Source: a virus (Duplodnaviria; Caudoviricetes). From it: a stretch of DNA of 25,969 bases. The position numbers were made by a program, and so were the translations under genes. Every line of letters begins with the position of its first letter. The stretch's first letter is position 1. Below the pieces are notes generated by a model. That model worked only from the letters and a program-made list of their open reading frames with translations. It had not been told where the DNA came from and searched no databases. The stretch is from the IMG/VR virus record IMGVR_UViG_3300046837_000043, positions 1 through 25,969 of that record. One strand, written 5' to 3'. Shown here piece after piece: positions 9,764 through 25,969 of this stretch.

Positions 9764-10184
9764 GGGCGGCCTTCTTTCGGATCATAAAAGGAATCTTCCC
9801 GTCCGCTGTGGGGCCAAACTCCGCTCCCAGCCAGCCCAGCCAGCGCTTGCCGGAAGGGTTATCGCACATCACGTCCCCTACAATCGTTGGGTAGATTTTC
9901 AGCGCCTCCTCAATATAGCGCTGGCTGTGCCGAACGAGGAGGAACTTATGCTGCGCTGCGACCTCGGTCGCAAGCATCCAGAGATAGGCTGTGGTGGAGA
10001 GCAGCGTGGGCGGGATCAGTCCCCACATACAAGCCAGTTGGCCGTCCACGAAGCCGTATCGGATATCGATGCTCCGATGCACACACTCACGTAGGATCTT
10101 CTCTGCATTCAGCCTCCCTGCAACCGGACTTCGACGGAGAACCTCCTTCAGGGAGATGTCACTGCTCCGAGAGATCGATATCAT
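9756..10184 (-). CDS. T7 gp13-like / acetyltransferase-fold virion assembly protein
   Basis: Start ATG 10184 (ATGA overlap with tail tubular B stop). Motifs DGQLACMWGL, AYLWML, N..GKRWLGWLGAEF. Lies between the nozzle and ejection genes. Confidence 0.72.
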   Translation of the reverse strand: MISISRSSDISLKEVLRRSPVAGRLNAEKILRECVHRSIDIRYGFVDGQLACMWGLIPPTLLSTTAYLWMLATEVAAQHKFLLVRHSQRYIEEALKIYPTIVGDVMCDNPSGKRWLGWLGAEFGPTADGKIPFMIRKKAAHG

Positions 10185-13100: not shown

Positions 13101-13375
13101 CCGTTGGAGTGGAACCGGATGTAGTTCTGCCCAAACTCAAGGACATACGACAGCGTTGTGGAGGGCTGGAAGGGAATCAACCTCGCGCCAGCGGACTTGG
13201 CTTGGTTGATGAACTTCGTGCCCTGCCGAGTCGAGGCACCGCCGCCGGAGTAGTCAACATAGAAGTTGCGCAGCAGCGCGGCACCAGAGTGGTATTTTTG
13301 AATATCCACCCGCGAGCGGAGCTTCGGTGCCCACTCACCAGAGGCAAAGGAGGTTTTGATCGAGGGCTGTGCCAC
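10181..13375 (-). CDS. Tail tubular protein B (nozzle; T7 gp12 / BPP-1-like) with inserted beta domains
   Basis: GTG start (TAGTG overlap). N-terminus SFASGEWAPKLRSRVDIQKY..GAALLRNF...GG...RQGT, RLIPFQ, YVLEFGQNYIRF, plus QERLAFAG and EQELVGWAHHDT are hallmark nozzle motifs. Confidence 0.9.
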   Translation of the reverse strand: MAQPSIKTSFASGEWAPKLRSRVDIQKYHSGAALLRNFYVDYSGGGASTRQGTKFINQAKSAGARLIPFQPSTTLSYVLEFGQNYIRFHSNGAPIVETGTAITGITQANPGVVTDVAHGYATGDWVLISQVGGMTQLNGNYYIVVNTGVNTYTLTDLNGNAINTTAFGAYTSGGLAHRVYTITSPYNTSDLFPNPVTGNPGLKWVQNVTSLIITHPSYAPAVLTINSATSWTLVNAAFGPAISTPTGLANGAGTNIGAGTWFYGYRVAAVDINGQESGPSVALILSSLLYIGTTVGTIQVTWTAVTGAASYNVYKTLPINGSVPSSGAQYGFVGNVTTAVFNEAYPGIVADFSQTPPIIENPFIGPGVTSYNVTAAGAYTTVPGVIVAAPPSGQTATSITSLGVTVVGAITHATGNQDILTTGPDPNGSLLTFSNGIILRITGTALIGTGGGHSFWEVTSVGASPVSSGSITAGSTPTNPVSPGGCTAAGFVGFNASGGSFGISFTWGVKDILPVMGGNGYVTAPAVTFSAGAAAATAVIGPASSGNPGVPGFIQERLAFAGSSQAIQSFNFSQPGSFFNFNVSNPSQDDDAISGTIISEELNDIRWLLPVPTGIIAGTGKGAWLINGGGGISTQVPITPSNATAQPQSFNGVNDLRPIKINSDTLYATNKGNYIRSLSYSIYTQLFTGSDISVLSNHLFFNNYLLDWAWAEEPFKTLWAIRGDGQMLSLGYVKEQELVGWAHHDTNGQFQSVCSVIETVSTGNVVDAIYLVVQRLVQGTLVPYVERMADRYFTYGYEDAWSVDCALQTQPALSPTSTLLGFNDASQVGNSVTFQDPGGAPFTSQMATNGWVIRAGGGIYKIVTFTSSAQITATVIRPPTLINSYTNKPSPVTTGYTIWTPITSVSGLTQLIGQSVVGVADGVAVGPYTVSALGTVALGLTATKVTLGLAYLPQLQTLPLDLGEPTVQGKRKKITGLTLRVADTLGLQVGKTFATVVAMKDFTLGNVPTTSTGVAMVSDLVSGDGRTIIDQEWDTAGNYCIQQNLPYPATILGAMPETTVGDGK

Positions 13376-13833
13376 TAAGCAAACTCACCTAGCAAATTAT
13401 AACGTGCTGCTTGATACACCGCAGTAGCTTCTTCTGCAGATTCAAACGATCCTAATTCATGCCTTACACCATTCACTTCTATCCTCGAACGATATTTAGT
13501 GCCATGTACTTCATAGCCTAACGCATTCTTCTTAGCAGCAGCATTATTTTGTGCATTAGTACATTCCCGCAAATTGGAGATTCTATTATCCCAACGCTTC
13601 TCATTTATATGATCGATCTGTTCTGGCATGTACCCATAAGTCAGAAGCCACGCTAATCTATGACCAGATAGTCTATAGCCAAGCAAGCCGATTTGCCAAT
13701 AACCCAAAGCGTTTGGGCAACCAGCAATCTGTCCAATTTTGCTTGGACCTCGACTATTGGTGTTAGCTACCCAATAAAAGTCGCCTGTATCAGGCTCGTA
13801 TTTAAGGTATTTCTTTACGATTTCAGGTTCCAT
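13375..13833 (-). CDS. Free-standing HNH homing endonuclease with C-terminal AP2-like domain
   Basis: Start ATG 13833 after GAGGA. YEPDTGDFYW, HRLAWLLTYG..PEQIDHINEKRWDNRISNLRECT..QN (HNH_3 type) and YRSRIEVNG..ELGSFESAEEA..Y (AP2-like). Visibly AT-richer than its flanks. Confidence 0.92.
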   Translation of the reverse strand: MEPEIVKKYLKYEPDTGDFYWVANTNSRGPSKIGQIAGCPNALGYWQIGLLGYRLSGHRLAWLLTYGYMPEQIDHINEKRWDNRISNLRECTNAQNNAAAKKNALGYEVHGTKYRSRIEVNGVRHELGSFESAEEATAVYQAARYNLLGEFA

Positions 13834-13840
13834 GTGTTCC

Positions 13841-15022
13841 TCAGTAAGGTGAGTAAGAAGCACCCCAGTCAAAGGAAAGATTCGGAGAATACTCAAAGTT
13901 CGGCCCAACACCATAACCCCCACGGGTTCGAATGAAGTCAGGGGTTACATCGTTGACAGTGATGCCCTCATTGCCGTCAGCCTTGCGGGCTTCCATCACC
14001 ATGCTATTAGCAAGTTGGATTTGTTGATTTGCAAGAGCCTTATCACCAGCGAGTTGGAAGGTTAGCCGCGCTGCAAGAATGTGTACCCACGCATCTTGAA
14101 AAAGAGGATCCATTACGTTAGGATCAACAACCTGGGTGTTATAACAAAGGATGGCTTGTGATTGATTACAAAGAATTACTCGTTGGGTAGTTGAGAAAGG
14201 AGTGAAGGTTAGGTTAAAGGTTGCACCAGCGCCCACGCTTGGGTTGCCTCCTACGCCAGCCACTGATCCTTGCGCAACAGGGTTGACCGGAATTGAAAAG
14301 TAGCTACCACCACCTGGACCGAGAGTAGCAACAGGAAACTCGCCTATGATTTGAGCTAGGACTAGAACTCCAGTCACAGCGCCGCTTCCGCTAACACTAG
14401 AAACTAAAAGCTGCGCAGGTGCTCCGGCATCCATTGTATAGGAAGTGATCGAAGGTGGTTGGCCAACCGGAGCAGAATTTTGCTTAAAGCTATAGACCGG
14501 TTGTTGCAAGGTGATAATGTCGTTGACTGAGTAACCTGAACCGCCACTTGCGATTGCTGCGGTTAGCACAGTGAAGAAAGAGTCAGTGGCGATTTTGAAT
14601 TTGAGCGCAGGGCCGGTCCAGCCAGGCTGGCCTGCACCAGTGACAGTCCCCGCCGGGTAGATCGGCACACCTCCAGCTTGGGTGGTGTACTGCGGGATGA
14701 TCATTCGCGCACGAAGACAATCGAAAGGATACTGATACTCATAAGTCCAAGGAATCGGCGGCTGGCCAACTTGCCAAAGTGGGGCGCCTGCCTGTGGATT
14801 CTCAGGGTTGCCTGGGAGAGTTGATATATACGTGAGCGGAGCCCACTTCGTCACGCAGTCCCAAGGGGCCATCCGGTTTAGCTCGTCGCGGAGTTGGAAC
14901 ATAATCAGCTGGCATTGGATGGCCTCGTTCGAGGACTGCGCGTTGAACTCTGCCAAGGTCATGTTTGTGCGCGAGCCCATAACCTGTAAGGCACGATTGG
15001 CGATGTCAAGGTTGGTGGTCAT
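13841..15022 (-). CDS. Tail tubular protein A / head-tail adaptor (T7 gp11-like) with internal insertion
   Basis: MTTNLDIANRAL..MG, RDELNRMAPW, WTYEYQYPFDCLR, DPLFQDAWVHILAARL...LAGD and A..ADGNEG match adaptor proteins. 393 aa is longer than usual. Confidence 0.85.
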   Translation of the reverse strand: MTTNLDIANRALQVMGSRTNMTLAEFNAQSSNEAIQCQLIMFQLRDELNRMAPWDCVTKWAPLTYISTLPGNPENPQAGAPLWQVGQPPIPWTYEYQYPFDCLRARMIIPQYTTQAGGVPIYPAGTVTGAGQPGWTGPALKFKIATDSFFTVLTAAIASGGSGYSVNDIITLQQPVYSFKQNSAPVGQPPSITSYTMDAGAPAQLLVSSVSGSGAVTGVLVLAQIIGEFPVATLGPGGGSYFSIPVNPVAQGSVAGVGGNPSVGAGATFNLTFTPFSTTQRVILCNQSQAILCYNTQVVDPNVMDPLFQDAWVHILAARLTFQLAGDKALANQQIQLANSMVMEARKADGNEGITVNDVTPDFIRTRGGYGVGPNFEYSPNLSFDWGASYSPY

Positions 15023-15080: not shown

Positions 15081-16613
15081 TCAATGCACCGTCTTTACCA
15101 TGTCTGGTAGCATGGTATAGTTTACTACCACGCTCGCGTGTGGGTCTAGGTTTATTGTACAATTCTGTGTACCAGTGCAGTTAAAGAATCCACTAACAGA
15201 TACGTCGCTAACGGCACCACCGAATATATAAACAGTTTCCGGTGAGTCTCCAGCTGTATAGGTAAATGGCGAGGCGCCGACTGTAAGCATCGAACTACCT
15301 ACTGGATTGTATCCCCCATTATCCTTTATGGTGTTGTTGGATCCTACATCTGTAATCGCAGTGGTGTTGCCTCCGAAGAAATTGCCTTGGACGAGGGTGT
15401 TGAAGGCACTGCCTAACATCGCTAGCCCTATACCGCAGAACTGAATTTGGTTACTGATGATGTTGGTCCCGTCCCCCTGCAAAGCGATACCGTGCGTAGC
15501 CGTTAGCGAGTCACAAACAATTACATTGCCAGTAATTGTAGTGAACGCTTGGTTGGTGTCCTGGATGTCAATTGCCGCGAAGTTGGCACCTGGAGCGATG
15601 AGGTTGCCAGTGAAGGTCGAAAGGTTGTAAGATGTCCCGATCAAGATCGAGTCTTTGACAGTGGCAAACTGATTATTGCTCACCAACATTTCTAATAGGT
15701 TCCCTGGCGACGAGCCAGGTACAAGGATGCCAAAGTTAGAGCCCTGTAAGTTGCTCTGGGTTAGAGTTAACCCCTGTGTGTAACCACCCAACACGATGCC
15801 GTTGTTCAGGTTGTTGAGTGTGTTCTTTGAAATGTTGTGATAGATCGAATAGCCAGTAGTGGTGCCGCAGTCGACTGGGTTGCCGGCGATGTTAATACCA
15901 TTTCCCTGTGCAGAACCAGAACCGAAGCCGCCGTACAGTGTCAGTCCATCATAATTAATTCCCGAGACACCGACGATGTTGATCGCATTGCTCCAATAAT
16001 CAGTGATCGCTGCATAGGCATCGTCACCACGAAACGTCACCCGGTAAAAGTCAGATTGAGCAAAATCGGCTAAGCAGTCGGTCTGCGTCAACGTTACGCC
16101 GTTACCGCTATTAGCCGCTCCTGTTGACACGGTACAATCGCGCATGTGGAATGAGTTACCATGGAATACATAGTTGACCGTTATGCCATTCCCTGTTGGC
16201 CAGAACAGGATAGTGTTATCGGCACCGGAACAGGCGATCGACAAAGAGTGCACACCAGTAGCGATATTATAGGTGATGGCCGAAAGGAATTTGTATTTAC
16301 CAGGATGAGAGAATATAACATTACTACTATCAGACAAGGCACTATTGAAAGCACTCGCTGAGTCAGCTGCGCCAGTTGGATCGGCCCCATACCAAACCGG
16401 GTCGGCATAGCCAAAAATAGCAGTGCAAACTGTGGGTATTAAAATGCAGGTGGTAGTGATAAGACCACCAGAGCTAGGAATAGCTTTAGGCGGTGCAGGG
16501 CTTGCGGTGGAGTTGCCGCAGACAGTGCTAGGAGGAAACAACCCATTGCACTGAGCCGAGGCAGCCCCACACAGCCCAATCAGGATCGCGAGGGAAAGGA
16601 GGATTTTTTTCAT
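15081..16613 (-). CDS. Signal-peptide-bearing parallel beta-helix protein (pectate-lyase-3-like tailspike/depolymerase)
   Basis: MKKILLSLAILIGLCGAASA|Q Sec signal. WYGADPTGAADSASAFNSAL..PGKY is the Pectate_lyase_3-type N-terminal motif, followed by Asn/Gly/Ile ladders (ITGNVI, ISNQI, VQGNFF). Confidence 0.8.
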   Translation of the reverse strand: MKKILLSLAILIGLCGAASAQCNGLFPPSTVCGNSTASPAPPKAIPSSGGLITTTCILIPTVCTAIFGYADPVWYGADPTGAADSASAFNSALSDSSNVIFSHPGKYKFLSAITYNIATGVHSLSIACSGADNTILFWPTGNGITVNYVFHGNSFHMRDCTVSTGAANSGNGVTLTQTDCLADFAQSDFYRVTFRGDDAYAAITDYWSNAINIVGVSGINYDGLTLYGGFGSGSAQGNGINIAGNPVDCGTTTGYSIYHNISKNTLNNLNNGIVLGGYTQGLTLTQSNLQGSNFGILVPGSSPGNLLEMLVSNNQFATVKDSILIGTSYNLSTFTGNLIAPGANFAAIDIQDTNQAFTTITGNVIVCDSLTATHGIALQGDGTNIISNQIQFCGIGLAMLGSAFNTLVQGNFFGGNTTAITDVGSNNTIKDNGGYNPVGSSMLTVGASPFTYTAGDSPETVYIFGGAVSDVSVSGFFNCTGTQNCTINLDPHASVVVNYTMLPDMVKTVH

Positions 16614-17038
16614 GACTGATTCGTCCAGCCCCTAAGGGCATTGCTGGGGTAAAGAATAAAGCCACCGTAGGCTGAGGAGATTTGAATCGAAGAGAGACTC
16701 ATGATAGTCTCAGCACCCGAGGTAGGTTGGATGGTAATTGGATGCGTTGCGGCATTACCACCGATGTCGACGATGCCAATTGAGTTCTTGGCGTAACCCC
16801 CAGGAAGGGCACCTGCTGGAACACCTGGATCAGTCGCTGGAGGCAGGGTGATTGTGACTGCCCCTGCCACGTTTACATGAACTAGATTTGTACTAGGGTC
16901 TAGAATGTAAGTTCCAGCGGCAGTGATTGTGAGCAAGTTCCTCGCTGGAATTCGCACCCAGCCCACGCTTGAACCAAGGTAGGTATTCACCCACTCACGA
17001 GAGGTTCCACCTTGGTCCAAGTCGAGTTGGGAGGGCAT
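16610..17038 (-). CDS. Small beta-rich fibre-associated/adaptor-like protein, no signal peptide
   Basis: Start ATG 17038 (TAATG overlap). VNVAGAVTITLP..IVDIGGNAATHPITI..ETI..SSIQISSAYGGFILYP resembles a domain I recognise from phage fibre proteins. Confidence 0.65.
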   Translation of the reverse strand: MPSQLDLDQGGTSREWVNTYLGSSVGWVRIPARNLLTITAAGTYILDPSTNLVHVNVAGAVTITLPPATDPGVPAGALPGGYAKNSIGIVDIGGNAATHPITIQPTSGAETIMSLSSIQISSAYGGFILYPSNALRGWTNQS

Positions 17039-17232
17039 TAGTGTTTCCCTTGTGATCCGCAGCAACCGTGGTTGGATCCACCGATCCCAACGCTCTGGCT
17101 CATTTGCCCAGACGGGCCCTTCGGTGGAGAGTAGGGGAGGGGCTTGGCCTGGGTTACCCCACCCGACGACGCCGTGGGGCGTTGGTTGCTGGGGGAATCA
17201 GGGCCGTATTCAGAGAGGATATCCCGAGCCAT
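17038..17232 (-). CDS. Hypothetical 64-aa Pro/Ser/Gly-rich protein ending GSNHGCCGSQGKH
   Basis: GGAGG SD, ATG abutting the upstream TAA, stop overlapping the next ATG. The C-terminus is conserved at amino-acid level in the remnant at 15026. Confidence 0.75.
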   Translation of the reverse strand: MARDILSEYGPDSPSNQRPTASSGGVTQAKPLPYSPPKGPSGQMSQSVGIGGSNHGCCGSQGKH

Positions 17233-17517
17233 TTATGCCTCCTCGGTGCGCCGGAAGAACGGGGTGGGGCTAGGCCTATCGGCCTCAGCTTTGGCTTTGT
17301 TAGCTTCGGCGTTAGCCTTAGCCGCAGCTGCCGCCTCGACTTTGGCATCTTCCTCAACCTTCTTCGCCATAGCGTCGGCGTTCTCCTTCGCTGCGCCTTC
17401 TGCATGGCCTTCAAGCTCACGCTGCGCAGCATCGGTCAGTGCCTTCAACCTCGGCCACTGATGAGCCAGATCCGAAATCGAAAGCAGCTTATGCACCGCA
17501 TCCCAGTTAACACTCAT
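17233..17517 (-). CDS. Hypothetical 94-aa protein, Ala/Lys/Glu-rich helical C-terminus
   Basis: AGGAGG SD, ATGA overlap, fills the operon without a gap. Confidence 0.75.
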   Translation of the reverse strand: MSVNWDAVHKLLSISDLAHQWPRLKALTDAAQRELEGHAEGAAKENADAMAKKVEEDAKVEAAAAAKANAEANKAKAEADRPSPTPFFRRTEEA

Positions 17518-17750
17518 GTATGCCTCCTCTGGCTTCCGCCGTGGTGGATGGTTTTCCCCGAGTCCTTCGGGGCCTCAAAGCCTCGACCGGCGTCCATGGA
17601 GATCGAGGAGCCGTGGAGGATCTTTCCGGTATCGGTTGCGTGGTTGCCCATGGCCGAGCCAATTTGACTCACACCCGCAGGGGAGATTGCGTGGGCTCGA
17701 GGCTCACGCTTCCCAGCGCTCATTGAGTTATGTCCTGATCCTTGTCGCAT
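17514..17750 (-). CDS. Hypothetical 78-aa Gly/Ser/His-rich protein
   Basis: AAGGAG upstream of ATG 17750; an alternative coupled start is ATG 17723. Ends HHGGSQRRHT. Confidence 0.65.
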   Translation of the reverse strand: MRQGSGHNSMSAGKREPRAHAISPAGVSQIGSAMGNHATDTGKILHGSSISMDAGRGFEAPKDSGKTIHHGGSQRRHT

Positions 17751-18124
17751 TCACCATTCTCCTTTGGTTTGGTTAGCAGTCGTGTGTGATCCCAGCGGTT
17801 CTCGGGGTCGGATGCCATGTCGCGGCGGACTTTATTGAACGTCCCGCCTTCGGCATTTTGCTCCGTCATCAGCTGGCGGAAGCGGTCGTCACAGCGTTCC
17901 ATCTCACGGAGTTGGTGGGCTGGGACCGTGTGACCGAGTTCTTCGTACATGTACTTGATATCATGAAGGTCATGCATGTAGTTCATAAACCGCCGGATCT
18001 TCTCCGGGACTTCCTTCTCCGCCTCGCTGATGTAGAAGATCACCTTCACCATCATCTCGCGGATCATCTTCATCTCGCGGGCGATGCGTTCGAGGGTTAC
18101 TTCCTGGGAGGTTTCATCTGCCAT
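17720..18124 (-). CDS. Hypothetical 134-aa helical, charged, Met-rich protein
   Basis: TGATG overlap with the upstream gene; codon pattern like neighbouring genes. Confidence 0.75.
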   Translation of the reverse strand: MADETSQEVTLERIAREMKMIREMMVKVIFYISEAEKEVPEKIRRFMNYMHDLHDIKYMYEELGHTVPAHQLREMERCDDRFRQLMTEQNAEGGTFNKVRRDMASDPENRWDHTRLLTKPKENGECDKDQDITQ

Positions 18125-18627
18125 CAGACCCTACGCGTTTCCGGCTTCTTCGCCTGAAGCTCTGCGTTCTGCATCATGAGTTCGGCGAGTTGGGCTTGGA
18201 GGGCTTCGAACTCCGCACGGCTCACACCGGATTCGGTGACGGTCACGGCAGGCACCGGCATCTTGGAAGTGAGCTCCGCGAGTTGCTTCTCCAGCGAGCC
18301 CAGAAGGCTGGCGCTGAAGCCCTGACCGGGGAGGGATTCGATTGGGTGCTTCCAAGACGCAGCGTGCTGGGCTGAGATAGCCTCAGCCTCGGCGTCCAAC
18401 GGATCCATCGCTGGGGTTGGGGTGCCTTCGAAGATCGAGTCCGAAGCCAGCCCCTTACCCTCAAGGCAGACGAGAGTTTCAGCTTCAAAGTAGAAGGGGA
18501 CTTTGAACCGCTTCCGCCGCTCTCGGCCGTTGACCCGATCGGTTTCCTTGTACTCCCATTCAACCTCGTCGAGGTCTGGCGGGCGGCCATAGAGATAGTG
18601 TGGTTCGGTTAGTTTCCAACGTGCCAT
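18124..18627 (-). CDS. Hypothetical 167-aa protein with C-terminal coiled coil
   Basis: Start moved to ATG 18627 (AAGGAGA SD right after the upstream TAA). MARWKLTEPHYL...EFEALQAQLAELMMQNAELQA. Confidence 0.78.
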   Translation of the reverse strand: MARWKLTEPHYLYGRPPDLDEVEWEYKETDRVNGRERRKRFKVPFYFEAETLVCLEGKGLASDSIFEGTPTPAMDPLDAEAEAISAQHAASWKHPIESLPGQGFSASLLGSLEKQLAELTSKMPVPAVTVTESGVSRAEFEALQAQLAELMMQNAELQAKKPETRRV

Positions 18628-18638
18628 TAAAATCTCCT

Positions 18639-20888
18639 TTATGTGAAGTGTCCATTTGCTGGGTCGATCCAGGTAGGGAACGCGGCGGTGGTGGCGGTGG
18701 AGTTGGGGTCGAAGTTGGAGCCGAGGGCTTGCCAAGCGGTGAAGGTCAGCACCGAGCCGCTGTCCTTGTTGAACTGCGAAGCGTTCGTCCCGCCATTGGT
18801 GGCGTTGGGGCACAGATAGTTGTTACGATCGATGATCGAGGTGGCATGCTGTGTTGCCGCGGACTGCAGTTCAACAATGGAACAAGTGCTCCCTGTTCTT
18901 ATGTCTTCAATCTGATTGTCCGTAAACACGAGAGGCCTGGTTGCGGTCAGGGTGGTTCCGCCATCGATGTTGAACACCGCACTTTGTGCGTTGTATATTT
19001 TGTTCCTATAAAGTTGGTAGCGACAAGTGGCGGCCATGGTAGCTGCGACGGCACCACTAATACCAAAGTTTGAAAACCCTTGACCTTGTATTCCCCAAGC
19101 AAGATTGTCCCGGAATGTTGCCGTAAGACATCCCGCAGTTTCGAAATATGCCCCCAGAGTAAGATTAGGTATTGCATTCTTTTGTGCAACCACATTCTTC
19201 CATTGACACGAAAGGGCACAGTTGAAACCATCATCCAGGTCCAAGGAATATTGCGTGCCAAAGAAGTAGTTGCTGTCCATGCACCAATATTGGGCATAGG
19301 CCGTCGACACCACACCAATGCAGGTAAACAATGGTATCGAAATCGATCCATTGCTGATGTTATAGGTTCCAGCCCCGCCTGTCCCTGTTCCTAGAGACGT
19401 GATCGTACCAATTACTTGACTGATGATAGCTGGATTGAACAGTGTCATCCCGACCTGGAACGGCGGGCTTGAGTTAGCTGCCAGGCCAATAGTCAGAACA
19501 CCGCCAATTATACTATCAGTCGGCCCGCCGGAATAGTTGCTGAAAGCGGTGGTGTGATTGTTGAAATCTCCATTTATGCAATAAGACCGCGTAGGATCAC
19601 CAGTACCATTTAACACACTCGTGCCGAAATCCATCCATCGTACTAGGAAATTGTTTTGAATAACAGGATAGATGTGATGATCCTGAGCTCCGCCTTGACC
19701 ACAGCCAACGATTGATCCGCCCACGATGAATAGCCATTGTTCCCAAGTGGCAATGTCCATGCCCATACGGTTAGGAGGACTGCCAGTAATTGGACTTGAG
19801 ACTTTCACATTCCAACAACCTGCGCGCACTTTAAGAGGAACCCCAAACGCGGTATTTGGTGTTAGGCAAAAAACATCCTGTGAAGTTAAAGCCGCTGTTG
19901 TAGTTGAAATCACCGTCACATTGTCAAAGTAAAAATCATTGACCTCCAGCAATGGGTCGTCATTTTGACCAAGCAAGCCACAGGCAATCTGCGCAGTGTT
20001 ACCGGGTCCGCATTTAGCCACGACATTTGAAATGACGATGTCCTGCAACCATACACCGCCGGAAGATCCTGCAGACCCAGTGCTGAATTGAATGGGGGCG
20101 TATGTATTTACGTTGTCCTCACGGATGGGATCGGCCCCGACACCATAGGCATCGACACGAAAACCGTTGACCGGTGTAGTATTGCCATTGCCAATGCCAG
20201 CAGCGCCATTGAGAAAAAGCGACCCACGCTTCAAATGCATCGCGCAGTTGGTGAAGCCCGCTGCGTTAAGTACAGTGAAAGCATCGCCTAGATTATTGAA
20301 TGGCGACAGGAGTGTTCCACTGCCTCCGCCAGCAGCAGCAGAATCAACCCACACTTCTGCACCGGAAGCATTGAAGGTGCTGGCAGTGAAAGTCGTCGTT
20401 GCGGTAGCTGTGGTGAAGCCTGCGCCGTTAGCGCCCCGAATCGTCAGGGTAACGGTATATGTGTCAGCTACGCGGCAGACAAATGCAGCCTCGGGGCCGG
20501 TTTGGTCGGTGTTGGCGTTGACGGTCGGACCGCCGGTGGAGTAGGGATAGATCGATGGATTGGTGAAGTTCTCGGCGGCAACAGAGCCACCAGCGCGAGT
20601 TAGAGTCCAAGTGTATTCAAGGTCTTCGTAGGGCTGCACAATGCCACCAACCGCAGTCGCGGTGATGTTCATGGCTGATGCTTGGAAGAACGCAGGCAGT
20701 TGGCCCGAGGAGCGAGACAGCTCGATGCCACCGCTAACGTCGATGGCTGTGATCTGGACATTGGGGTTGCCGCCGAATCCTGCGGGAGGTGGGGAGCCAG
20801 CATTACCATGGGTCCAAGCGAGCGAAGGAATTGCCCGCCAAATGGCTAAGAAACTCGCGCCAGCTAATAGGTTGCGTTTAGTCAACAT
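18639..20888 (-). CDS. Exported (Tat-like signal) PKD/Ig-like + parallel beta-helix protein
   Basis: Start ATG 20888 (or TTG 20885). MLTKRNLLAGASFLAIWRAIPSLA|W signal; LEYTWT..YTVTLTI (PKD-like); VWVDS..GGSGTLLSPF, LKRGS.F, AYG.GADP; C-terminal TFTAWQALG.FDPNS..P.WIDPANG.F as in secreted bacterial beta-helix proteins. Confidence 0.72.
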   Translation of the reverse strand: MLTKRNLLAGASFLAIWRAIPSLAWTHGNAGSPPPAGFGGNPNVQITAIDVSGGIELSRSSGQLPAFFQASAMNITATAVGGIVQPYEDLEYTWTLTRAGGSVAAENFTNPSIYPYSTGGPTVNANTDQTGPEAAFVCRVADTYTVTLTIRGANGAGFTTATATTTFTASTFNASGAEVWVDSAAAGGGSGTLLSPFNNLGDAFTVLNAAGFTNCAMHLKRGSLFLNGAAGIGNGNTTPVNGFRVDAYGVGADPIREDNVNTYAPIQFSTGSAGSSGGVWLQDIVISNVVAKCGPGNTAQIACGLLGQNDDPLLEVNDFYFDNVTVISTTTAALTSQDVFCLTPNTAFGVPLKVRAGCWNVKVSSPITGSPPNRMGMDIATWEQWLFIVGGSIVGCGQGGAQDHHIYPVIQNNFLVRWMDFGTSVLNGTGDPTRSYCINGDFNNHTTAFSNYSGGPTDSIIGGVLTIGLAANSSPPFQVGMTLFNPAIISQVIGTITSLGTGTGGAGTYNISNGSISIPLFTCIGVVSTAYAQYWCMDSNYFFGTQYSLDLDDGFNCALSCQWKNVVAQKNAIPNLTLGAYFETAGCLTATFRDNLAWGIQGQGFSNFGISGAVAATMAATCRYQLYRNKIYNAQSAVFNIDGGTTLTATRPLVFTDNQIEDIRTGSTCSIVELQSAATQHATSIIDRNNYLCPNATNGGTNASQFNKDSGSVLTFTAWQALGSNFDPNSTATTAAFPTWIDPANGHFT

Positions 20889-21814
20889 ATTCCACCTGAG
20901 ACACCACCTAGCGCGGTAAGAGCAACGTTGGTTGCATGGCACAGGTCGGTAATGTCTGCGCCCGACAGGCCGCCACCAATGGAGAAGGTCATGATCTGGC
21001 GAGCCGAGCCACCTCCAACCCCGGTGCCGGGAACATTGTAAGCAAGAACATAGAAGTTGCCGTTAGTTGGAGCGGCGGAACCTTTGCCCATGATCATCTG
21101 GTCAGCCGCGTTCCAGTATCCAAGGTCTGCCGTAAGATTGGTCCTGTTGGCAAGGAAATGTCCCAGGCTGTTTCCTGATGGGGTCGCACCACTGGCAAAG
21201 GCGTTGGCGTTCGCCGTGTATGACGAATTTCCAGCTGACGCCGCCGAGAGGCCCGCAGATATGTAACTCGCAACCGGCGTTGCGACATCGATCAATCCCA
21301 TATCGACTTCGTTACTGGGAGCCGGGCTGTTGCTGGTGTTGCTCCAAAACGCCAGGTGGGCGGAGTTCTGCGTGTAGTGGCCTCCAGCCGTCGAAGGGTT
21401 GAAGTTAGTGTCGAGCGCGATGGTGGTGCTGGCATCGACTCCCGTATATCCACGATTGGCCGTAAATGTCGGAGTGCTAATTTCAGTGGTGTTGAATGTA
21501 CCTGGCTGTGCCATGTTGATTAAGGCATCAGCCTTATTCGTCAGTGCCAGGAAGTTCCAGACATCAAGCTTGGCAAAGACGCCGCTGGTTACTCGACCGC
21601 AGATCAGCGTATCGAGGGCGGTCTTTTCGCCTCCGGTGAGAGTGGTAGCGGCTGCGAAGTATGCAGTTGATTGCGAACAGGATCCACCAGCACCGCTGCT
21701 AGGTGGGTTATTGTAAGCCGAGTCGCGAGTCTGCCAATAAGCGCGGGTCGGCACCTGCGTCAGGCAGACAATTCCGGCGAGCAGAAGTGCCCAGACTGTA
21801 AAGCGGTGCCACAT
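20882..21814 (-). CDS. Exported protein with probable ConA/LamG-like beta-sandwich
   Basis: Start ATG 21814 (TAATG overlap). MWHRFTVWALLLAGIVCLTQVPTRA|Y signal, then FTANRGYTG..LDTNFNPST..YTQNSAH and FSIGGGLS. The fold call is inference. Confidence 0.68.
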   Translation of the reverse strand: MWHRFTVWALLLAGIVCLTQVPTRAYWQTRDSAYNNPPSSGAGGSCSQSTAYFAAATTLTGGEKTALDTLICGRVTSGVFAKLDVWNFLALTNKADALINMAQPGTFNTTEISTPTFTANRGYTGVDASTTIALDTNFNPSTAGGHYTQNSAHLAFWSNTSNSPAPSNEVDMGLIDVATPVASYISAGLSAASAGNSSYTANANAFASGATPSGNSLGHFLANRTNLTADLGYWNAADQMIMGKGSAAPTNGNFYVLAYNVPGTGVGGGSARQIMTFSIGGGLSGADITDLCHATNVALTALGGVSGGIC

Positions 21815-23013
21815 TAGAGCTGATATCCCCAAGCCGAGACGGACACAACGCCACCAGTACCTGGTGCTCCAGATACCACGTTGATTGCTGTGTTTGTTGC
21901 GCTAGATGGGATGCAGGGCGAGAAGATCATTTCAGTCACGCCCAGACCGCTCGCATTCGGCGCGGTCCATTGGGTGAAGTTCATGGTCGCGGTAACGACG
22001 CCAGTCAGCGTGGCGTTGTTAGTCACCGCCGCCGTTGCGTTGGCGCGGATCGAGAATCCGCAGATATAGGTCTTGAGACCGCTACCGGAAGCCGCGAGCG
22101 TGGCAGTGGTGGCTGCCGTGGTGCCGGTTGCGGTCGCCGTGATCGGCACAGCGCCGTCTGCATAAGGAGCAGTTCCGACTGTGCCGATATGGGCGGTGCC
22201 AGCAGGAACGGCCGCGCCGGTGTTCGTGGCGATCGTAGAAAGGGAGGCAAGCTCGGTGGTTTGGTTGGCGGACGTAGCCGCGCCAGTTGGTAGAACACTA
22301 GCGTCTACGCTAGTGGAAAGCTGGTTGCTGGCGTTGACGTTGGCCCCTCGGGCGTTGCCAGCGGCATCGCGGATGATTCCATAGGCGCCATTCAACGTAC
22401 CTGGCGCCGCCACGTAAGCAGTTCCGTTATAGAGATAATTAACTACCGCACCAGTGTTGTTGCCGTTGACACCAGTGGTTGGATTGAGGGCAAGAGCGGT
22501 AAGCCAATTCTGCGTGTTGGTTCCATCGCTCAAAGCAACGCGAACAGGATTGCCAACAAGCGCAGCACCCGTGGCGCCAGGGCCGACGACCTGGGCATTG
22601 AGGTTCGAGGCGGTGGCCTGGGTGGCTGCGGTGGTGGAACCAGTGTCGATAACTGCGTGAAGGTTGGTACCAGTCGCCTGCGTGACAGCAGTCGTCGAGC
22701 CGGTATCGATCACTGCATGAAGATTAGTTCCAGTCGCTTGCGATACAGGCTGGGTAGTGGTGCCTGTTGGGTCGACTCGTACTGGGGCACCGGAGACGCC
22801 GATTTCGGCTCCTGCAGAGTTGACCAAACCTACGGCCTGGCATTGAGTGTTGGCCGCAGCGCAAAGGGCGGAGCCTCCGTGGGTTGCGTCGAAGGCTCGG
22901 ATCAGAAGGCCGGAGCCAGAGCTTGCGCCGTAGTCAGCCAGGGCGTAGATGGGCAGGATGGAGATAAGGCCAAGGTAGGCCAAGCGGAGAAAGCGTAGAT
23001 GCCATTTGTTCAT
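21814..23013 (-). CDS. Exported Thr/Ala/Gly-rich fibre-like protein with C-terminal beta-sandwich paralogous to 23192-23623
   Basis: MNKWHLRFLRLAYLGLISILPIYALA|D signal, 20-aa tandem repeats, C-terminal TYICGF...PCIPSSATNT...SAWGY. Confidence 0.75.
   Translation of the reverse strand: MNKWHLRFLRLAYLGLISILPIYALADYGASSGSGLLIRAFDATHGGSALCAAANTQCQAVGLVNSAGAEIGVSGAPVRVDPTGTTTQPVSQATGTNLHAVIDTGSTTAVTQATGTNLHAVIDTGSTTAATQATASNLNAQVVGPGATGAALVGNPVRVALSDGTNTQNWLTALALNPTTGVNGNNTGAVVNYLYNGTAYVAAPGTLNGAYGIIRDAAGNARGANVNASNQLSTSVDASVLPTGAATSANQTTELASLSTIATNTGAAVPAGTAHIGTVGTAPYADGAVPITATATGTTAATTATLAASGSGLKTYICGFSIRANATAAVTNNATLTGVVTATMNFTQWTAPNASGLGVTEMIFSPCIPSSATNTAINVVSGAPGTGGVVSVSAWGYQL
22591..22746 (-). 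repeat. About 2.5 copies of a 60-nt / 20-aa in-frame tandem repeat (QATGTNLHAVIDTGSTTAVT)
   Basis: Lines 22621-22680 and 22681-22740 align in register with mostly third-position differences. The third partial copy is QATASNLNAQV. Confidence 0.9.
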
Positions 23014-23195
23014 GGCGCACCTCCAAGCATGGGCAGCGCACAGCCCACGGAAAGGTCAATTACCCCTGCGCAGGTTGGACCAACAGGGGTGCCTCCGCCA
23101 GAGAGGGAGTCGGTGACTCCGCGAAGGAGTTGCGCCGAGGCGGATACAGAGAAGATCAAAAGAAGAGCGGTTAGGTGGGTGAATAGGCGGGTCAA
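23010..23195 (-). CDS. Exported mini-protein (about 40-aa mature peptide, 2 Cys)
   Basis: Likely TTG start at 23195 overlapping the upstream TGA (alternative ATG 23210). MTRLFTHLTALLLIFSVSASA|QLLRG...TCAGVIDLSVGCALPMLGGAP. Stop overlaps the next ATG. Confidence 0.68.
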   Translation of the reverse strand: MTRLFTHLTALLLIFSVSASAQLLRGVTDSLSGGGTPVGPTCAGVIDLSVGCALPMLGGAP

Positions 23196-23623
23196 TTTGT
23201 ATACCCCCATGCGGTTATCGCGGCGACAGTGCCAGCGCCCCCAGCAGGGAGGGTTACAACGATGGAGGTGTTGACTGCGGAGGAAGAGATGCAACCCGGG
23301 AAGGCGACGCCGAGAATGCCCTGGCCAGAGGAGACAAAGGCGTATTCATAGTTCATGGTAGCGAGGGTGCCGGTGATTGCAATGTTGCCGAGGGTAGCAG
23401 AGGTGGTGCCTGCGGAAGTAACGACGAAGCCACAGAGATAGGTCCACTTGCCTGCAACGCCGGTGAGGGTTGCGGTGAAGGAACCAGTGGTGCCAGTTGC
23501 CGAGGCAACGAGGTTATTGGGTTGGCCTCCCTGCGGGAATGGGGCGGTAGTGACGATTTGAGCCTGGGCTGGCGCTATGCCCAGGAGAGCAGCGAGGAAA
23601 AGCGCCAGTCCAAGGTTTCGCAT
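23192..23623 (-). CDS. Exported single-domain beta-sandwich protein
   Basis: AGGAG SD; MRNLGLALFLAALLGIAPAQA|Q signal; TYLCGF...PGCISSSAVNT...TAWGY. Confidence 0.8.
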   Translation of the reverse strand: MRNLGLALFLAALLGIAPAQAQIVTTAPFPQGGQPNNLVASATGTTGSFTATLTGVAGKWTYLCGFVVTSAGTTSATLGNIAITGTLATMNYEYAFVSSGQGILGVAFPGCISSSAVNTSIVVTLPAGGAGTVAAITAWGYTN

Positions 23624-23632
23624 CGGGGTCTC

Positions 23633-24085
23633 CTACGACGAGCTAACGCACATATAGGCGATGGTATTGTTAGCGGTCGAGGTTTGGGTGATGGTTAGGG
23701 TAGTAGTGGCAGTGGCATAGGAGAGGGCCGCAAGGATTGCGGACTTCGGGGTCAGGAGACAGACCGGAGCGGTGACAAAGGGCGTGCCGAAGGTGAGCAC
23801 GCAGGAGGTGGTGGCGGAAGTGCCGACGGTGATGACCCCAGCGAAGTCGGTGCCGACAACAGATGGAGAGGTCGTACCGCAATTGGCTGCTGCCACCGTC
23901 GGAGGTGGGCCACCTCGGGTTGTGGTAAGGAGGTGGTTAGGGAGGTAGATATTGTTAGAGGTATCGTAGCCGATAAGACCGGTTGGGTCCTGAGAGAGTT
24001 GGACTGCTTTGTTGATGTTCTGAGCAAAGGCTAAAGCCAGGCCAAGGGCCAGGATCACAGCCGAGGGGAGTAGGAGCTTTTTCAT
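23633..24085 (-). CDS. Exported beta-rich protein, fibre-tip/H-type-lectin-like C-terminus
   Basis: GGAGG SD and ATGA overlap; MKKLLLPSAVILALGLALAFA|Q signal. CVLTFGTPFVTAPVCLLTP...IAYMCV resembles fibre C-terminal domains (inference). Confidence 0.75.
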   Translation of the reverse strand: MKKLLLPSAVILALGLALAFAQNINKAVQLSQDPTGLIGYDTSNNIYLPNHLLTTTRGGPPPTVAAANCGTTSPSVVGTDFAGVITVGTSATTSCVLTFGTPFVTAPVCLLTPKSAILAALSYATATTTLTITQTSTANNTIAYMCVSSS

Positions 24086-24726
24086 TGTGGTGCCTCCGTC
24101 CAGCGGAATGTTACGTTGAGAAGAGCGGTGGGTGAAGTGGCGTTGAGGTTCACGCAGATTTGCTGCGCTGCGCCTCGTAGAGTTGGGGCTTCGGAGAAAG
24201 TCCGCTCGGCGTAGTCGAACAGGACGTAGGGGGTTACCGCCGCACCGACGGTGGTTGCGACCAAGCCAAGGTTGGCACTGCTGATAATGCCAGGGGCAGA
24301 GTCAGGAATGGTAGGGTTGGCTGTGTAGGAGACGAGGGTTGCGGTGGAGGTTGGGTTGGTACTGTCCAAAGCGTAGGCTACAGGGAGGACGACACCAGTA
24401 CCAGGAGTGCCACCGGTATCGGCGGAGGCGTTCTTCTTGATCAGCACAGGGACGGAGATAGCTGTGCCACTACCGCTGACACGAACCGATTGGACACGGA
24501 TCACGCGGGTAGCAGAGCCTGCGATGCAAGCGATGTCGGTTGCGGAAGCAGCAGGAATGATACCTACGCCAGTGGCGGCATAGGTTGCGACGGAGGGTTC
24601 CTGGGTACAGGTGACGCCGACTTGGGGGACGTTGTTAACGCCACCAACGCCAACGCAGGAGACCTGAGCTTGGGCCGCCCCCGCAAACGCGAGGGAAGCA
24701 ACAAGGGCAAGGAGGAGTTTCTTCAT
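24082..24726 (-). CDS. Exported beta-rich (jelly-roll/decoration-like) protein
   Basis: Start moved to ATG 24726, one base after the cement TAA. MKKLLLALVASLAFAGAAQA|Q is a textbook Sec signal; 4 Cys. Confidence 0.8.
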   Translation of the reverse strand: MKKLLLALVASLAFAGAAQAQVSCVGVGGVNNVPQVGVTCTQEPSVATYAATGVGIIPAASATDIACIAGSATRVIRVQSVRVSGSGTAISVPVLIKKNASADTGGTPGTGVVLPVAYALDSTNPTSTATLVSYTANPTIPDSAPGIISSANLGLVATTVGAAVTPYVLFDYAERTFSEAPTLRGAAQQICVNLNATSPTALLNVTFRWTEAPQ

Positions 24727-24727
24727 G

Positions 24728-25261
24728 TTAGTTCGCCACCGTGATGCCAGCAGGGTAGCCGCCGAGGACCGCGTTCTTGGTGGATTGGTACATTTGATCA
24801 TGGCGGTCGAGGACGATGTAGGCTGCGATGGTTGGGTTGCAGGTGGAGACGGTGGTGTAGACCAACTTGAGGAAGCGCGGGACAGCCACGCCAGCGGGTG
24901 GACGAGGCATGTCCATATCCATCAAGCGGGCGCCAACGACAAGCTGGGCGGTGGTGTAGGCTGGAGAGACCCACCAGACGGAGAAGGTGGATGGGACGCC
25001 AGCGGCAGTGTCGATTGCGCCCTCGAGGGTTACGGTCATCGAGGTGCCGGTGGAGGCAGCGGTGATGACTTGGACCAGGAGCTTGAGGGCTGGATCGTCA
25101 CCGATGCCGATATCGCGAGCTTGGCCTACGCCAAGGATAGTCGCGGAGGTGGTTGGCAAACCAAGGTTGCCAAGGTCGATGATGTTTGCGGAGTCTTGGG
25201 TAGTGCCTGACGCCGTGATGAGAGACCCGGTGTCGAAGGCGAGGAGTGCGTCGAGGATCAT
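24728..25261 (-). CDS. Capsid cement/decoration protein, Bbp16 (BPP-1) / epsilon15 gp10-like
   Basis: Immediately after the capsid gene with GGGAGG SD. MILDALL.FD....TAS....SANIIDLG and P...PRFLKLVYT match the Bbp16 pattern. Confidence 0.85.
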   Translation of the reverse strand: MILDALLAFDTGSLITASGTTQDSANIIDLGNLGLPTTSATILGVGQARDIGIGDDPALKLLVQVITAASTGTSMTVTLEGAIDTAAGVPSTFSVWWVSPAYTTAQLVVGARLMDMDMPRPPAGVAVPRFLKLVYTTVSTCNPTIAAYIVLDRHDQMYQSTKNAVLGGYPAGITVAN

Positions 25262-25275
25262 GGTGCATGCCTCCC

Positions 25276-25969
25276 TTAAGTGAGCGCTGCTTCGTTGTTG
25301 AGGATGGCGTCACAGGTTCGCACCGGGATGCCGCGGAAGGTGGTGACGGGTTTGCCATCGAACTCCTCGATGCGGAGGAGGACGTTGGTTTTGTTCATCG
25401 CCTGAAGATCGAGGTAGGTTCGGATGACACGGTTGCAGTAGATGACGGAGCGGCCCATGTTCGCACGGACCTCAGGAGTGTCGGAGGTCTGGATGGTGCC
25501 GGCTGAGACGGGCTGGGTCGGGAGTTTGTAGATGGCCCGGACCAAGAGGTTGATGAGGTTAGCCGCGGACACGCCGGTGAGTTGGGTGATGTCAATGTTC
25601 GCGATCCGGACGATATAACGCCAGTCGCGGAGGACATAACCGATCTCCCACTTAAAGTGATCGCGATAGGCTTGGTAGGTGTTGCCCGAGGCATCGGTTA
25701 CCGGCCACTCACCCATGTCGCGGTGCTGAAGGCCGGTGATCTTGCCCTTAGGGAAGGTTGCGTGGGCAGTGTCGTCGCCCCAGACCTTGAGCCAGATCGA
25801 AGTGTTGGTCGAGGCTGCGCCGCCGCCATCGAGGACGTTGTTAGCGGTTTGAGAACTGGCGGTGGTCTTCGTGGAGTATCGAGGGGACAGCCCGGTGAAC
25901 CGCTCTGGGTTCACGAACTGGTTCCCGTAGATCATTGTCGCGGCGATCTGCTGGGACATGCCTTCGAGG
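25276..25969 (-). CDS. Major capsid protein, BPP-1 Bbp17 / epsilon15 gp7 type (5'-truncated by the window edge)
   Basis: EGMSQQIA.TMIYG..PERFTGLSPRY, SIWL.VWG, PKG..GLQHRDMGE, YRDHFKWEIG..LRDWRYIVRIANID and F.GIPVRTCDAIL.NEA follow the Bbp17 sequence closely. The frame is open to the window end. Confidence 0.95.
   Translation of the reverse strand, partial: LEGMSQQIAATMIYGNQFVNPERFTGLSPRYSTKTTASSQTANNVLDGGGAASTNTSIWLKVWGDDTAHATFPKGKITGLQHRDMGEWPVTDASGNTYQAYRDHFKWEIGYVLRDWRYIVRIANIDITQLTGVSAANLINLLVRAIYKLPTQPVSAGTIQTSDTPEVRANMGRSVIYCNRVIRTYLDLQAMNKTNVLLRIEEFDGKPVTTFRGIPVRTCDAILNNEAALT

Follow-up and report, generated by a model that had tools for sequence, protein, structure and literature searches.

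Signal-peptide-bearing late proteins of an epsilon15/BPP-1-like podophage as candidates for periplasmic folding and docking on the virion at lysis

According to the textbook view, tailed phages complete their assembly in the cytoplasm. The virion proteins pIII and pVIII of the Ff phages carry signal peptides, and pIII forms disulfides in the periplasm; both are membrane-anchored and are assembled during extrusion, without lysis. To our knowledge, the tailspikes of epsilon15/BPP-1-type podophages are leaderless. Within the open-access literature, searched by title and start of abstract, we found no description of exported virion proteins of tailed phages. In the available parts of the papers on gp37/gp38 of the Klebsiella podophage KP32 (PMC13352976) and CBA120 TSP4 (PMC8825819), a variable sugar-acting body is carried on a peptide and the partners come from neighbouring genes; the gp37 branching domain and the conserved gp38 peptide combine a T4 gp10-like domain with a short N-terminal peptide. 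The term 'signal peptide' is absent from the main text of the KP32 paper. Residues 74–176 of CBA120 TSP4 form the XD1 domain, which Chao et al. (PMC8825819), in the part available, called an apparent spacer of incompletely understood function; docking has been proven for XD2 and XD3. On the head side, the accessible descriptions of the RcGTA head spike (jelly-roll base Rcc01079 and fibre Rcc01080, PMC7296036), the HFTV1 turret (bioRxiv 2024.12.09.627619) and the KHP40 trimeric cement (PDB 7DOU) share a jelly roll with an N-terminal arm, encoded beside the capsid genes; in the RcGTA type, glycan-binding fibres are held by short N-terminal tags. Disulfides in virion proteins are described for Milano, crAss001 and the siphovirus of PMC13576161, and neither signal peptides nor folding in the periplasm is reported in the accessible portions of these sources; as the source of the disulfides, PMC13576161 proposes host DsbA or spontaneous oxidation, and in the same portion it calls disulfide machinery in phages undescribed.

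Here we analysed a window of 25,969 nucleotides from an uncultured phage, whose virion operon is, judged from its genes, of the epsilon15/BPP-1-like short-tailed (podophage) type. Genes are named by their start coordinates (24726, 24085, 23623, 23195, 23013, 21814, 20888, 16613 and 17038), and all those described lie on the minus strand. The major capsid protein (25276..25968; Pfam PF20911, E 1.7e-84; NCBIfam NF045672) is of the epsilon15/BPP-1 type and is 44–48% identical to its best cultured-phage matches; the 5′ part of its gene runs beyond the window, and the complete version in the relative L006 is leaderless. The Bbp16-type capsid cement (24728..25261; PF21190, E 1.7e-5, slightly below the cut-off) is leaderless and contains one cysteine. 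The tail adaptor (13841..15022; phrog_394, E 1.4e-29) and the tail nozzle (10181..13375; phrog_376, E 1.9e-147) are leaderless too, as are the core proteins; the adaptor has an internal insertion and the nozzle inserted domains, which might serve receptor binding without any exported protein. Like the epsilon15/BPP-1-type podophages, the phage keeps the order of capsid, cement, adaptor, nozzle and core; in contrast, cultured phages gave zero matches to 24726, 24085, 23623 and the XD1 adaptor 17038.

The span 15081..24726 contains eight leader-bearing genes and also six leaderless genes (18627–16610). The first-pass annotation had described the eight as tightly joined to their neighbours and unlike classical morons, and both statements held. 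The intergenic gaps before the eight, from 24726 through 16613, are +1, −4, +9, −4, −4, −1, −7 and −4 bases, overlapping or nearly abutting; between 13000 and 25969, promoter-like sites (10 versus 7.6 ± 3.1 expected) and terminator-like sites (10 versus 11.2 ± 3.3 expected) are at chance level, in contrast to the own promoter and terminator expected of a classical moron. In a near-identical genome (G001, 99% complete), no further Thr/Gly-rich leaderless fibre was found among the ORFs of at least 110 aa outside the window. The early region of the near-identical genome carries a gene for a VPLPA-CTERM-like surface protein. Host labels from four MAG contigs conflicted and were set aside as host evidence.

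All eight starts and cleavage motifs that had been reported are present in the sequence: AQA↓Q21 in 24726, AFA↓Q22 in 24085, AQA↓Q22 in 23623, ASA↓Q22 in 23195 (TTG start), ALA↓D27 in 23013, TRA↓Y26 in 21814, SLA↓W25 in 20888 and ASA↓Q21 in 16613. An in-house heuristic (a basic n-region plus an uncharged 10-residue window with mean hydropathy of at least 2.0) passed 8/8 leader genes, compared to 9 of the 1,923 windows taken from inside their mature chains. In the leaderless families it passed none (cement 0/41, tail adaptor 0/9, g18627 family 0/28, g17038 family 0/117). The leader of 20888 may be of the Sec or the Tat type: its n-region has K-R in place of R-R, and no NCBIfam family matched it up to E 1. 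As claimed before, none of the eight contains a lipobox pattern or, by inspection, a C-terminal anchor; one doubtful lipobox case occurs among the non-redundant leader proteins of related loci. The predicted conservation in homologues was borne out, with leaders in 113 of 119 members of the 24726 family and 85 of 87 of the 24085 family. Of 52 distinct loci, 45 have a leader on the gene behind the cement, and at least two leader genes occur in 26 of 27 related long loci; as far as sequences tell, the pattern is clade-wide. Export of the eight proteins is, on these leaders and the cysteine parity described below, very likely.

Exported proteins could act on the host envelope instead of the particle, through receptor masking, superinfection exclusion or surface remodelling, with an O-antigen-ligase-like gene of some relatives involved. 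In 6 of 80 capsid loci, the cluster includes this Wzy_C-type membrane gene, which could encode a glycosyltransferase acting on proteins or a ligase for LPS; together with the VPLPA-CTERM-like gene it speaks for such a role. However, the eight proteins are without lipobox or anchor, their coupling to late genes points to expression just ahead of lysis, the Wzy_C gene is absent from the window's own lineage (G001), and the leaderless adaptor described below would be left without explanation. We consider an envelope role highly improbable.

The first-pass annotation overlooked that the cysteine counts are even and that 16610–17038 encodes a leaderless partner. The mature chains of all eight leader proteins (8/8) contain an even number of cysteines. 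In related loci, the numbers of proteins with even, odd and no cysteines are 123, 5 and 5 for leader proteins (n = 133) and 48, 83 and 78 for leaderless proteins (n = 209), counts that are inflated by kinship and, in the leaderless set, include mis-called ORFs. Within a single domain family, the corresponding numbers are 45, 7 and 0 for leader forms versus 44, 35 and 10 for leaderless forms (p 2e-4). The leader proteins thus show the even-cysteine bias expected of oxidatively folded proteins. Phage disulfide networks do exist without reported export in the accessible accounts of Milano and crAss001, which is a counter-point to the export reading; different from these phages and the PMC13576161 siphovirus, the parity here is limited to leader-bearing accessory proteins. 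Owing to the leaders and the paired cysteines, secretion, periplasmic cutting and disulfide folding are likely.

Gene 17038 (16610..17038) encodes a leaderless, cysteine-free XD1-type (T4 gp9/gp10-like) protein of 142 aa. Its AF2 model (pLDDT 89.8) matches residues 74–176 of CBA120 TSP4 with a Foldseek E of 1.6e-5 and a VIA Z of 11.2 (rmsd 2.0 over 97 residues). The family is leaderless in 117/117 and cysteine-free in 103/117 members, and in 96 of 105 relatives it is followed by a leader-bearing gene. Residues 1–28 are conserved and lie outside the XD1 match; we infer that the protein is likely to attach at the tail adaptor (13841..15022). The gene that follows, 16613 (15081..16613), encodes a leader, a docking motif (Q21-C22..C32-G33) and a beta-helix spike with 12 mature cysteines; Pfam recognizes a NosD-type beta-helix (E 1.8e-8). 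In 89 of the 105 neighbour genes of the 17038 family, the mature chain opens with Q-C-x-G-x-F…C-G before a variable body, and the 62 complete bodies behind the constant motif sort into 39 groups. The spike thus appears, by sequence, to combine a constant anchor with an exchangeable body, like a tailspike. One spike gave a weak match (E 2.7e-4) to the S74 chaperone, a tailspike-typical domain, and GDSL, BNR, pectate-lyase-like and arabinofuranosidase-like domains occur in related clusters.

We modelled the 16613 motif together with 17038 as a 3+3 complex, using our own alignments and an assumed stoichiometry. The model scored 0.83 versus 0.00 for the best control, against a mark that 116 of 157 solved pairs attain, compared to 2 of 215 mismatched ones, and that applies here only roughly. 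Contact agreement between the runs was at least 97%, and the partner pLDDT was at least 83. The predicted interface joins mature spike residues 1, 3–7 and 19–24 to adaptor residues 91–97, 113–127 and 140–142; the residue that leader cleavage would free sits inside it. The tightest contacts run from spike G4 to adaptor G125 and D91; of these residues, G4 and G125 never vary, and D91 is conserved to at least 90%. The pass may reflect resemblance to solved fibre complexes. By these models, 17038 is the predicted docking adaptor of the 16613 spike.

A different role for 17038 would be that of a cytoplasmic chaperone of the spike precursor, or else the hydrophobic N-termini could be uncleaved anchors; either way there would be no docking at lysis. 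Adaptor and spike are co-translated, with a −4 overlap in most loci, and the function of XD1 is unsettled in the available part of PMC8825819, both of which would suit such a role. Yet the spike family has Ala at −3 in 86/90 and a leader of 19–20 residues in 78/90, both fitting cleavage, the residue that cleavage would free falls in the predicted interface, and the proteins that the adaptor most resembles in structure are structural components of virions; the chaperone or anchor explanation is quite improbable. A leaderless spike form made from an internal start was also considered and ruled out: a start codon at −3 to +1 of the motif occurs in only 10/90 spikes, always at the variable −2 position, and therefore no leaderless form is conserved.

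Compared to the branched receptor-binding systems, 17038 has the T4 gp9/gp10-like XD domain and lacks an XD2/XD3 jelly-roll docking domain; it is predicted to act like a branching domain, yet is not classed as one. The conserved N-terminal peptide on variable bodies is present, and the complex model predicts that it binds the XD domain. Different from the accessible accounts of KP32 and CBA120, the peptide here follows an export leader and has a cysteine pair that closes it, and the partner is a stand-alone XD1-type protein, whereas XD2/XD3 there lie within a long spike. The two partners here would also be made in different compartments.

Seven leader genes follow the cement. The first, 24726 (24082..24726), encodes a predicted single jelly-roll domain with an N-terminal arm and four cysteines (AF2 pLDDT 87.9). 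Its VIA matches are middling (Z 7–9): nanovirus capsid 9.3, HFTV1 turret chain 8.3, KHP40 cement 7.3 and Ena pilin 7.2; Foldseek returned no PDB match at E ≤ 0.001. Four cysteines are kept in 112 of 113 leader-bearing homologues. As in the jelly-roll decoration proteins, a single jelly roll with an arm is found, and the model makes 24726 a likely capsid decoration or spike base. Gene 24085 (23633..24085) encodes a beta protein of 129 aa with four cysteines, for which Pfam and PDB gave no real match; all 85 leader-bearing homologues have two or four cysteines. We presume its C-terminal half to be similar to lectin-like fibre tips. Gene 23623 (23192..23623) encodes a small beta-sandwich with two cysteines, whose Atlas neighbours are unnamed phage clusters. 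It is a paralogue of the C-terminal domain of 23013 (blastp 40–44% over 121 aa); a profile comparison gave no homology between 24726 and 23623. Gene 23195 (23010..23195) encodes a mature peptide of 40 residues with two cysteines and no family match, possibly a linker, and 23013 (21814..23013) a repeat-containing fibre with four cysteines that ends in the 23623-type domain.

The product of 21814 (20882..21814; four mature cysteines) contains a domain of phrog_26223/18498. Two of its homologues, P0356 and P0357, lack a leader and have an N-terminal Leu-Gly repeat that resembles the anchor of the RcGTA head fibre. The domain occurs in 75 matching records, including Flavobacterium, Sinorhizobium, Microcystis and Klebsiella phages; the two annotated matching regions list it only in hypothetical proteins, and our literature search found no virion data for it. 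Gene 20888 (18639..20888) encodes a parallel beta-helix with 16 cysteines (Atlas TM about 0.5 to beta-helix proteins; feature matches, all under 0.9, serve as leads only). Its N-terminal part is likely Ig/PKD-like, and the protein is likely a sugar-acting spike. Just two of the eight were named by Pfam, PHROGs and NCBIfam, 16613 as a beta-helix and 21814 through unknown PHROGs, and sequence searches of solved structures gave no real match for 24726, 16613, 24085 or the XD1 adaptor. Unlike RcGTA, HFTV1 and KHP40, the phage has leaders and cysteine pairs on its jelly roll and fibres and keeps a separate leaderless Bbp16-type cement.

The resemblance of 20888 to secreted bacterial beta-helix proteins, together with the enzyme-like domains of related clusters, would also suit soluble lectins or polysaccharide-cutting enzymes that are exported, stay off the particle and, freed at lysis, loosen capsule or biofilm for the progeny. 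But a free enzyme has no need for a motif that stays fixed in 39 body groups, or for a coupled XD1 gene; the spike motif is predicted to bind the XD1 protein, one spike has the weak S74 match, and the Atlas clusters nearest to the jelly-roll protein 24726 are 97–100% viral. We regard off-particle action as unlikely.

The best reading, and a likely one, is Sec export, disulfide folding in the periplasm and docking on the particle at lysis. The eight late products would be secreted through Sec into the host periplasm, cleaved by signal peptidase and folded with disulfides by host Dsb-type oxidation. The XD1 adaptor 17038 would be fixed to the tail by its first 28 residues, which are conserved. 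Lysis would then mix the compartments, and the exported parts would clip onto the cytoplasm-built particle: the 16613 spike would dock on the leaderless adaptor through its freed mature N-terminus, and the seven post-cement proteins would assemble into head spikes or fibres. The first-pass annotation had proposed export, periplasmic folding and docking; conserved leaders and cysteine parity strengthen the first two, and docking gains a predicted virion partner for one of the eight, 16613, while for the other seven it draws on fold and family likeness. That the 16613 spike joins the particle is, given the models, quite likely; for most of the seven joining the head, the balance tips slightly in favour.

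Taken as a whole, a broader picture is evenly poised. Across the clade, head, cement, tail and the small XD1 socket would be made in the cytoplasm, and all host-recognition parts (tail spike, head spikes and fibres) would be secreted and disulfide-folded, to attach by short tags that signal peptidase exposes. Some members might glycosylate the exported parts in the periplasm via the phage O-antigen-ligase-like enzyme. Lysis would be the last arming step, and co-infecting phages might exchange spikes.

The adaptor and its 13-residue tag form a small pair, possibly a plug-in socket for placing disulfide-rich binders on phage particles. Unlike the Ff coat proteins, the proteins considered here are anchorless and belong to a lytic, tailed, cytoplasm-assembled phage. 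If the proposal is true, export would be one route by which phage proteins gain disulfides, and signal-peptide genes in viruses, which are often dismissed as morons or as genes of the host, could have structural roles. Periplasmic maturation of the receptor-binding parts in a phage clade would then break the rule of cytoplasmic assembly.

The window carries, on its minus strand, the morphogenesis operon of an uncultured podophage, which encodes a GP7/epsilon15-type capsid, a Bbp16-type cement protein, a tail adaptor, a nozzle and T7-like internal proteins; after the internal-protein genes come two probable lysis genes without family match. The capsid is less than 48% identical to its best cultured matches. 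The near-identical record G001, which is 48,173 bases long and 99% complete, additionally encodes a terminase, a portal protein, DNA polymerase A and a helicase, and no integrase was present among the 16 G001 proteins scanned. The tail adaptor (13841-15022) is about 200 aa longer than phrog_394, owing to an internal Gly/Thr-rich insertion that is kept in the relative L046, and the nozzle (10181-13375) contains FCCH/Ig-like inserts; the inserted domains of both proteins might bind receptors. An HNH endonuclease gene (13375-13833) is located between them; a similar gene lies between capsid and cement in the relative L014. Five small leaderless genes occupy 17038-18627; most are conserved across the clade in shuffled order and lack a reliable family match. 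The gene at 18627 encodes 167 aa and has 28 non-redundant relatives.

The first-pass annotation had claimed eight signal-peptide-type leaders, on near-abutting or overlapping genes starting at 24726, 24085, 23623, 23195, 23013, 21814, 20888 and 16613. All eight starts and cleavage motifs were confirmed in the sequence, and the gaps range from -7 to +9 bases. Our own simple heuristic, applied to N-termini, passes 8/8 of these N-termini; within the same proteins, it passes 9 of 1,923 internal windows. It rejects all 41 cement, nine tail adaptor and 28 g18627-family proteins (relatives of the leaderless gene at 18627). The expected conservation in homologues was borne out by the same heuristic (113/119 for 24726 and 85/87 for 24085); five of the eight negative homologues are leader-like by eye, and the rest are truncated or differently started. 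Restricting the 80 capsid loci to those with a distinct cement gene and at least 5 kb downstream leaves 27, of which 26 contain at least two leader genes of at least 100 aa. In 45 of 52 distinct loci, the gene after cement is a leader gene. Between the portal and scaffold genes of G001, one 102-aa ORF (L251 1963-2271, minus strand) has a leader-like N-terminus and three Cys; Pfam search gave no match to it.

Proteins oxidised in the periplasm are expected to be biased towards even Cys numbers. From 24726 to 16613, the mature chains contain 4, 4, 2, 2, 4, 4, 16 and 12 Cys, the additional Cys of 21814 and of 16613 lying inside the leader. We counted Cys in 450 non-redundant locus proteins, 343 of at least 90 aa (one polytopic). 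At this length, leader proteins are even, odd or Cys-free in 123, 5 and 5 cases and leaderless proteins in 48, 83 and 78, a contrast inflated by relatedness and mis-called ORFs, for which a within-family comparison is fairer. Among 149 relatives of the 21814 domain, minus eight without Met, the corresponding numbers are 45, 7 and 0 for leader forms and 44, 35 and 10 for leaderless forms (p 2e-4).

The gene before 16613 (16610-17038) encodes a leaderless, Cys-free protein, the XD1 adaptor. Its predicted fold is similar to residues 74-176 of CBA120 TSP4 (Foldseek E 1.6e-5; Z 11.2, rmsd 2.0, 97 residues), followed by T4-like gp10, a tailspike and a capsid spike. Passages of the TSP4 paper describe this segment, XD1, as an apparent spacer, the proven docking domains being XD2 and XD3 (PMC8825819). 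From 160 loci we obtained 158 complete adaptor genes, 117 of them distinct. All 117 are leaderless, and 103 are Cys-free. The next gene, callable in 105 loci, bears a leader in 96 and a Q-C-x-G…C-G motif at the mature start in 89, window-identical copy excluded. C2, G4, C12 and G13 are invariant, but were demanded by the selecting pattern; F6 and P22, which were not, are at least 90% conserved. Ala is found at -3 in 86 of 90 spikes and is the sole independent cleavage-site signal, since the pattern demanded Ala/Gly at -1; 10 of the 90 have a start codon close to this site, in each case at -2. A chaperone role for the adaptor, or uncleaved N-terminal anchors, is quite unlikely in our assessment. 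Behind the motif, 62 complete spike bodies form 39 groups, and 55 bodies have even Cys. In L193, L199, L200 and L202, the gene after the adaptor encodes a leader and a second domain, XD-like by eye, in place of the motif; this sequence arrangement suggests a different or branched docking mode. Short leader-bearing, Cys-free proteins directly follow the spike gene in L014 (19449-19661) and L019 (16972-17199); this family of three possibly comprises spanin-like proteins or assembly helpers.

We modelled three adaptors with three copies of 16613 mature residues 1-32. The complex scored 0.83, whereas none of three controls scored above 0.00. Among solved pairs, 116 of 157 attained this mark, and among mismatched pairs 2 of 215, counts only roughly valid for such a job. 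Contact agreement between runs was at least 97%, with partner pLDDT of at least 83. Spike residues 1, 3-7, 19-21 and 23-24 contact adaptor residues 91, 94, 97, 113-115, 118-127, 140 and 142 in the model, G4 facing G125 and D91. The prediction supports binding of the spike tag to the adaptor, and may be influenced by similarity to fibre complexes already solved. In KP32, as described in part of the source, the second spike is docked on a T4 gp10-like domain by a conserved N-terminal peptide (PMC13352976). The docking logic predicted here is the same; however, the window peptide lies behind a leader, so the inner membrane would separate the sites where adaptor and spike are made. Activity as free secreted enzymes, akin to the release against host polysaccharide first offered as an alternative, appears improbable.

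The model of mature 24726 (pLDDT 87.9) is a single jelly roll with an N-terminal arm of about 25 residues. Structural comparison gave a heterogeneous set of matches with middling scores: Z 9.3 to a nanovirus capsid, 8.3 to the HFTV1 turret chain, 7.3 to KHP40 cement and 7.2 to Ena pilin. Uncharacterised proteins of tailed phages are its nearest predicted relatives. 23623 and the C-terminal domain of 23013 are paralogous; 16613 and 20888 are beta-helix proteins. Two leaderless 21814 relatives open with a Leu-Gly repeat resembling the RcGTA head-fibre tag, which, in the portion of the paper concerned, fixes the fibre on a jelly-roll base (PMC7296036); by this analogy, the 21814 domain is likely a head fibre in other phages. 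In L070/L074 (12311-14632), leaderless fibre-like genes, including a 21814 homologue with five Cys, stand among leader-bearing ones; leader and leaderless routes coexist among clade members.

Taken together, the best explanation, which we hold to be probable, is that the eight precursors are exported, folded in the periplasm and joined to the particle at lysis, as first proposed. After late translation they would pass likely through Sec (20888 perhaps through Tat), signal peptidase would release short N-terminal tags, and host oxidases would close the Cys pairs while the folded parts are held in the periplasm. Head, cement and tail would be assembled in the cytoplasm, together with the XD1 socket; upon inner membrane failure, this socket would receive the spike, and head spikes on a jelly-roll base would be formed by the post-cement proteins. 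The rest of G001 holds no other leaderless fibre-like ORF of at least 110 aa, which we count as support for this mechanism, although receptors might be bound by the inserted domains of nozzle and tail adaptor.

Cell-surface functions for the eight seem to us the least likely reading. One gene in the early region of G001 (L251 13330-13980, plus strand) is probably a moron acting at the host surface and offers a clue to the host; its product bears a leader, lacks Cys and has a VPLPA/PEP-CTERM-like tail. The VPLPA-CTERM-like match in G001 is weak (E 6e-4, below cut-off) and hints at a Gram-negative host with exosortase; the labels of four MAG contigs conflict with one another. In 6 of 80 capsid loci, an O-antigen-ligase-like (Wzy_C-type) polytopic membrane gene lies within the leader cluster (L014 13227-14342, L016 9798-10877, L017 12728-13795, L019 12164-13300, L020 8804-9940 and L034 8449-9345), above the Pfam cut-off in two records; it is absent from G001. 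In three loci it directly follows a leader-bearing protein of 274-286 aa, which in L017 weakly matches T4 gp9/10. This candidate periplasmic glycosyltransferase could act on Ser/Thr-rich exported parts, or could modify host LPS.

In the titles and abstract openings of papers from non-subscription journals, we found no account of tailed phages that export virion proteins, and the passages seen of papers on disulfide-rich phages do not mention signal peptides. Filamentous phage coat proteins are a precedent for exported virion proteins, with a different assembly mode. The component folds are already known; the two-compartment assembly route, if real, would be of a new kind.
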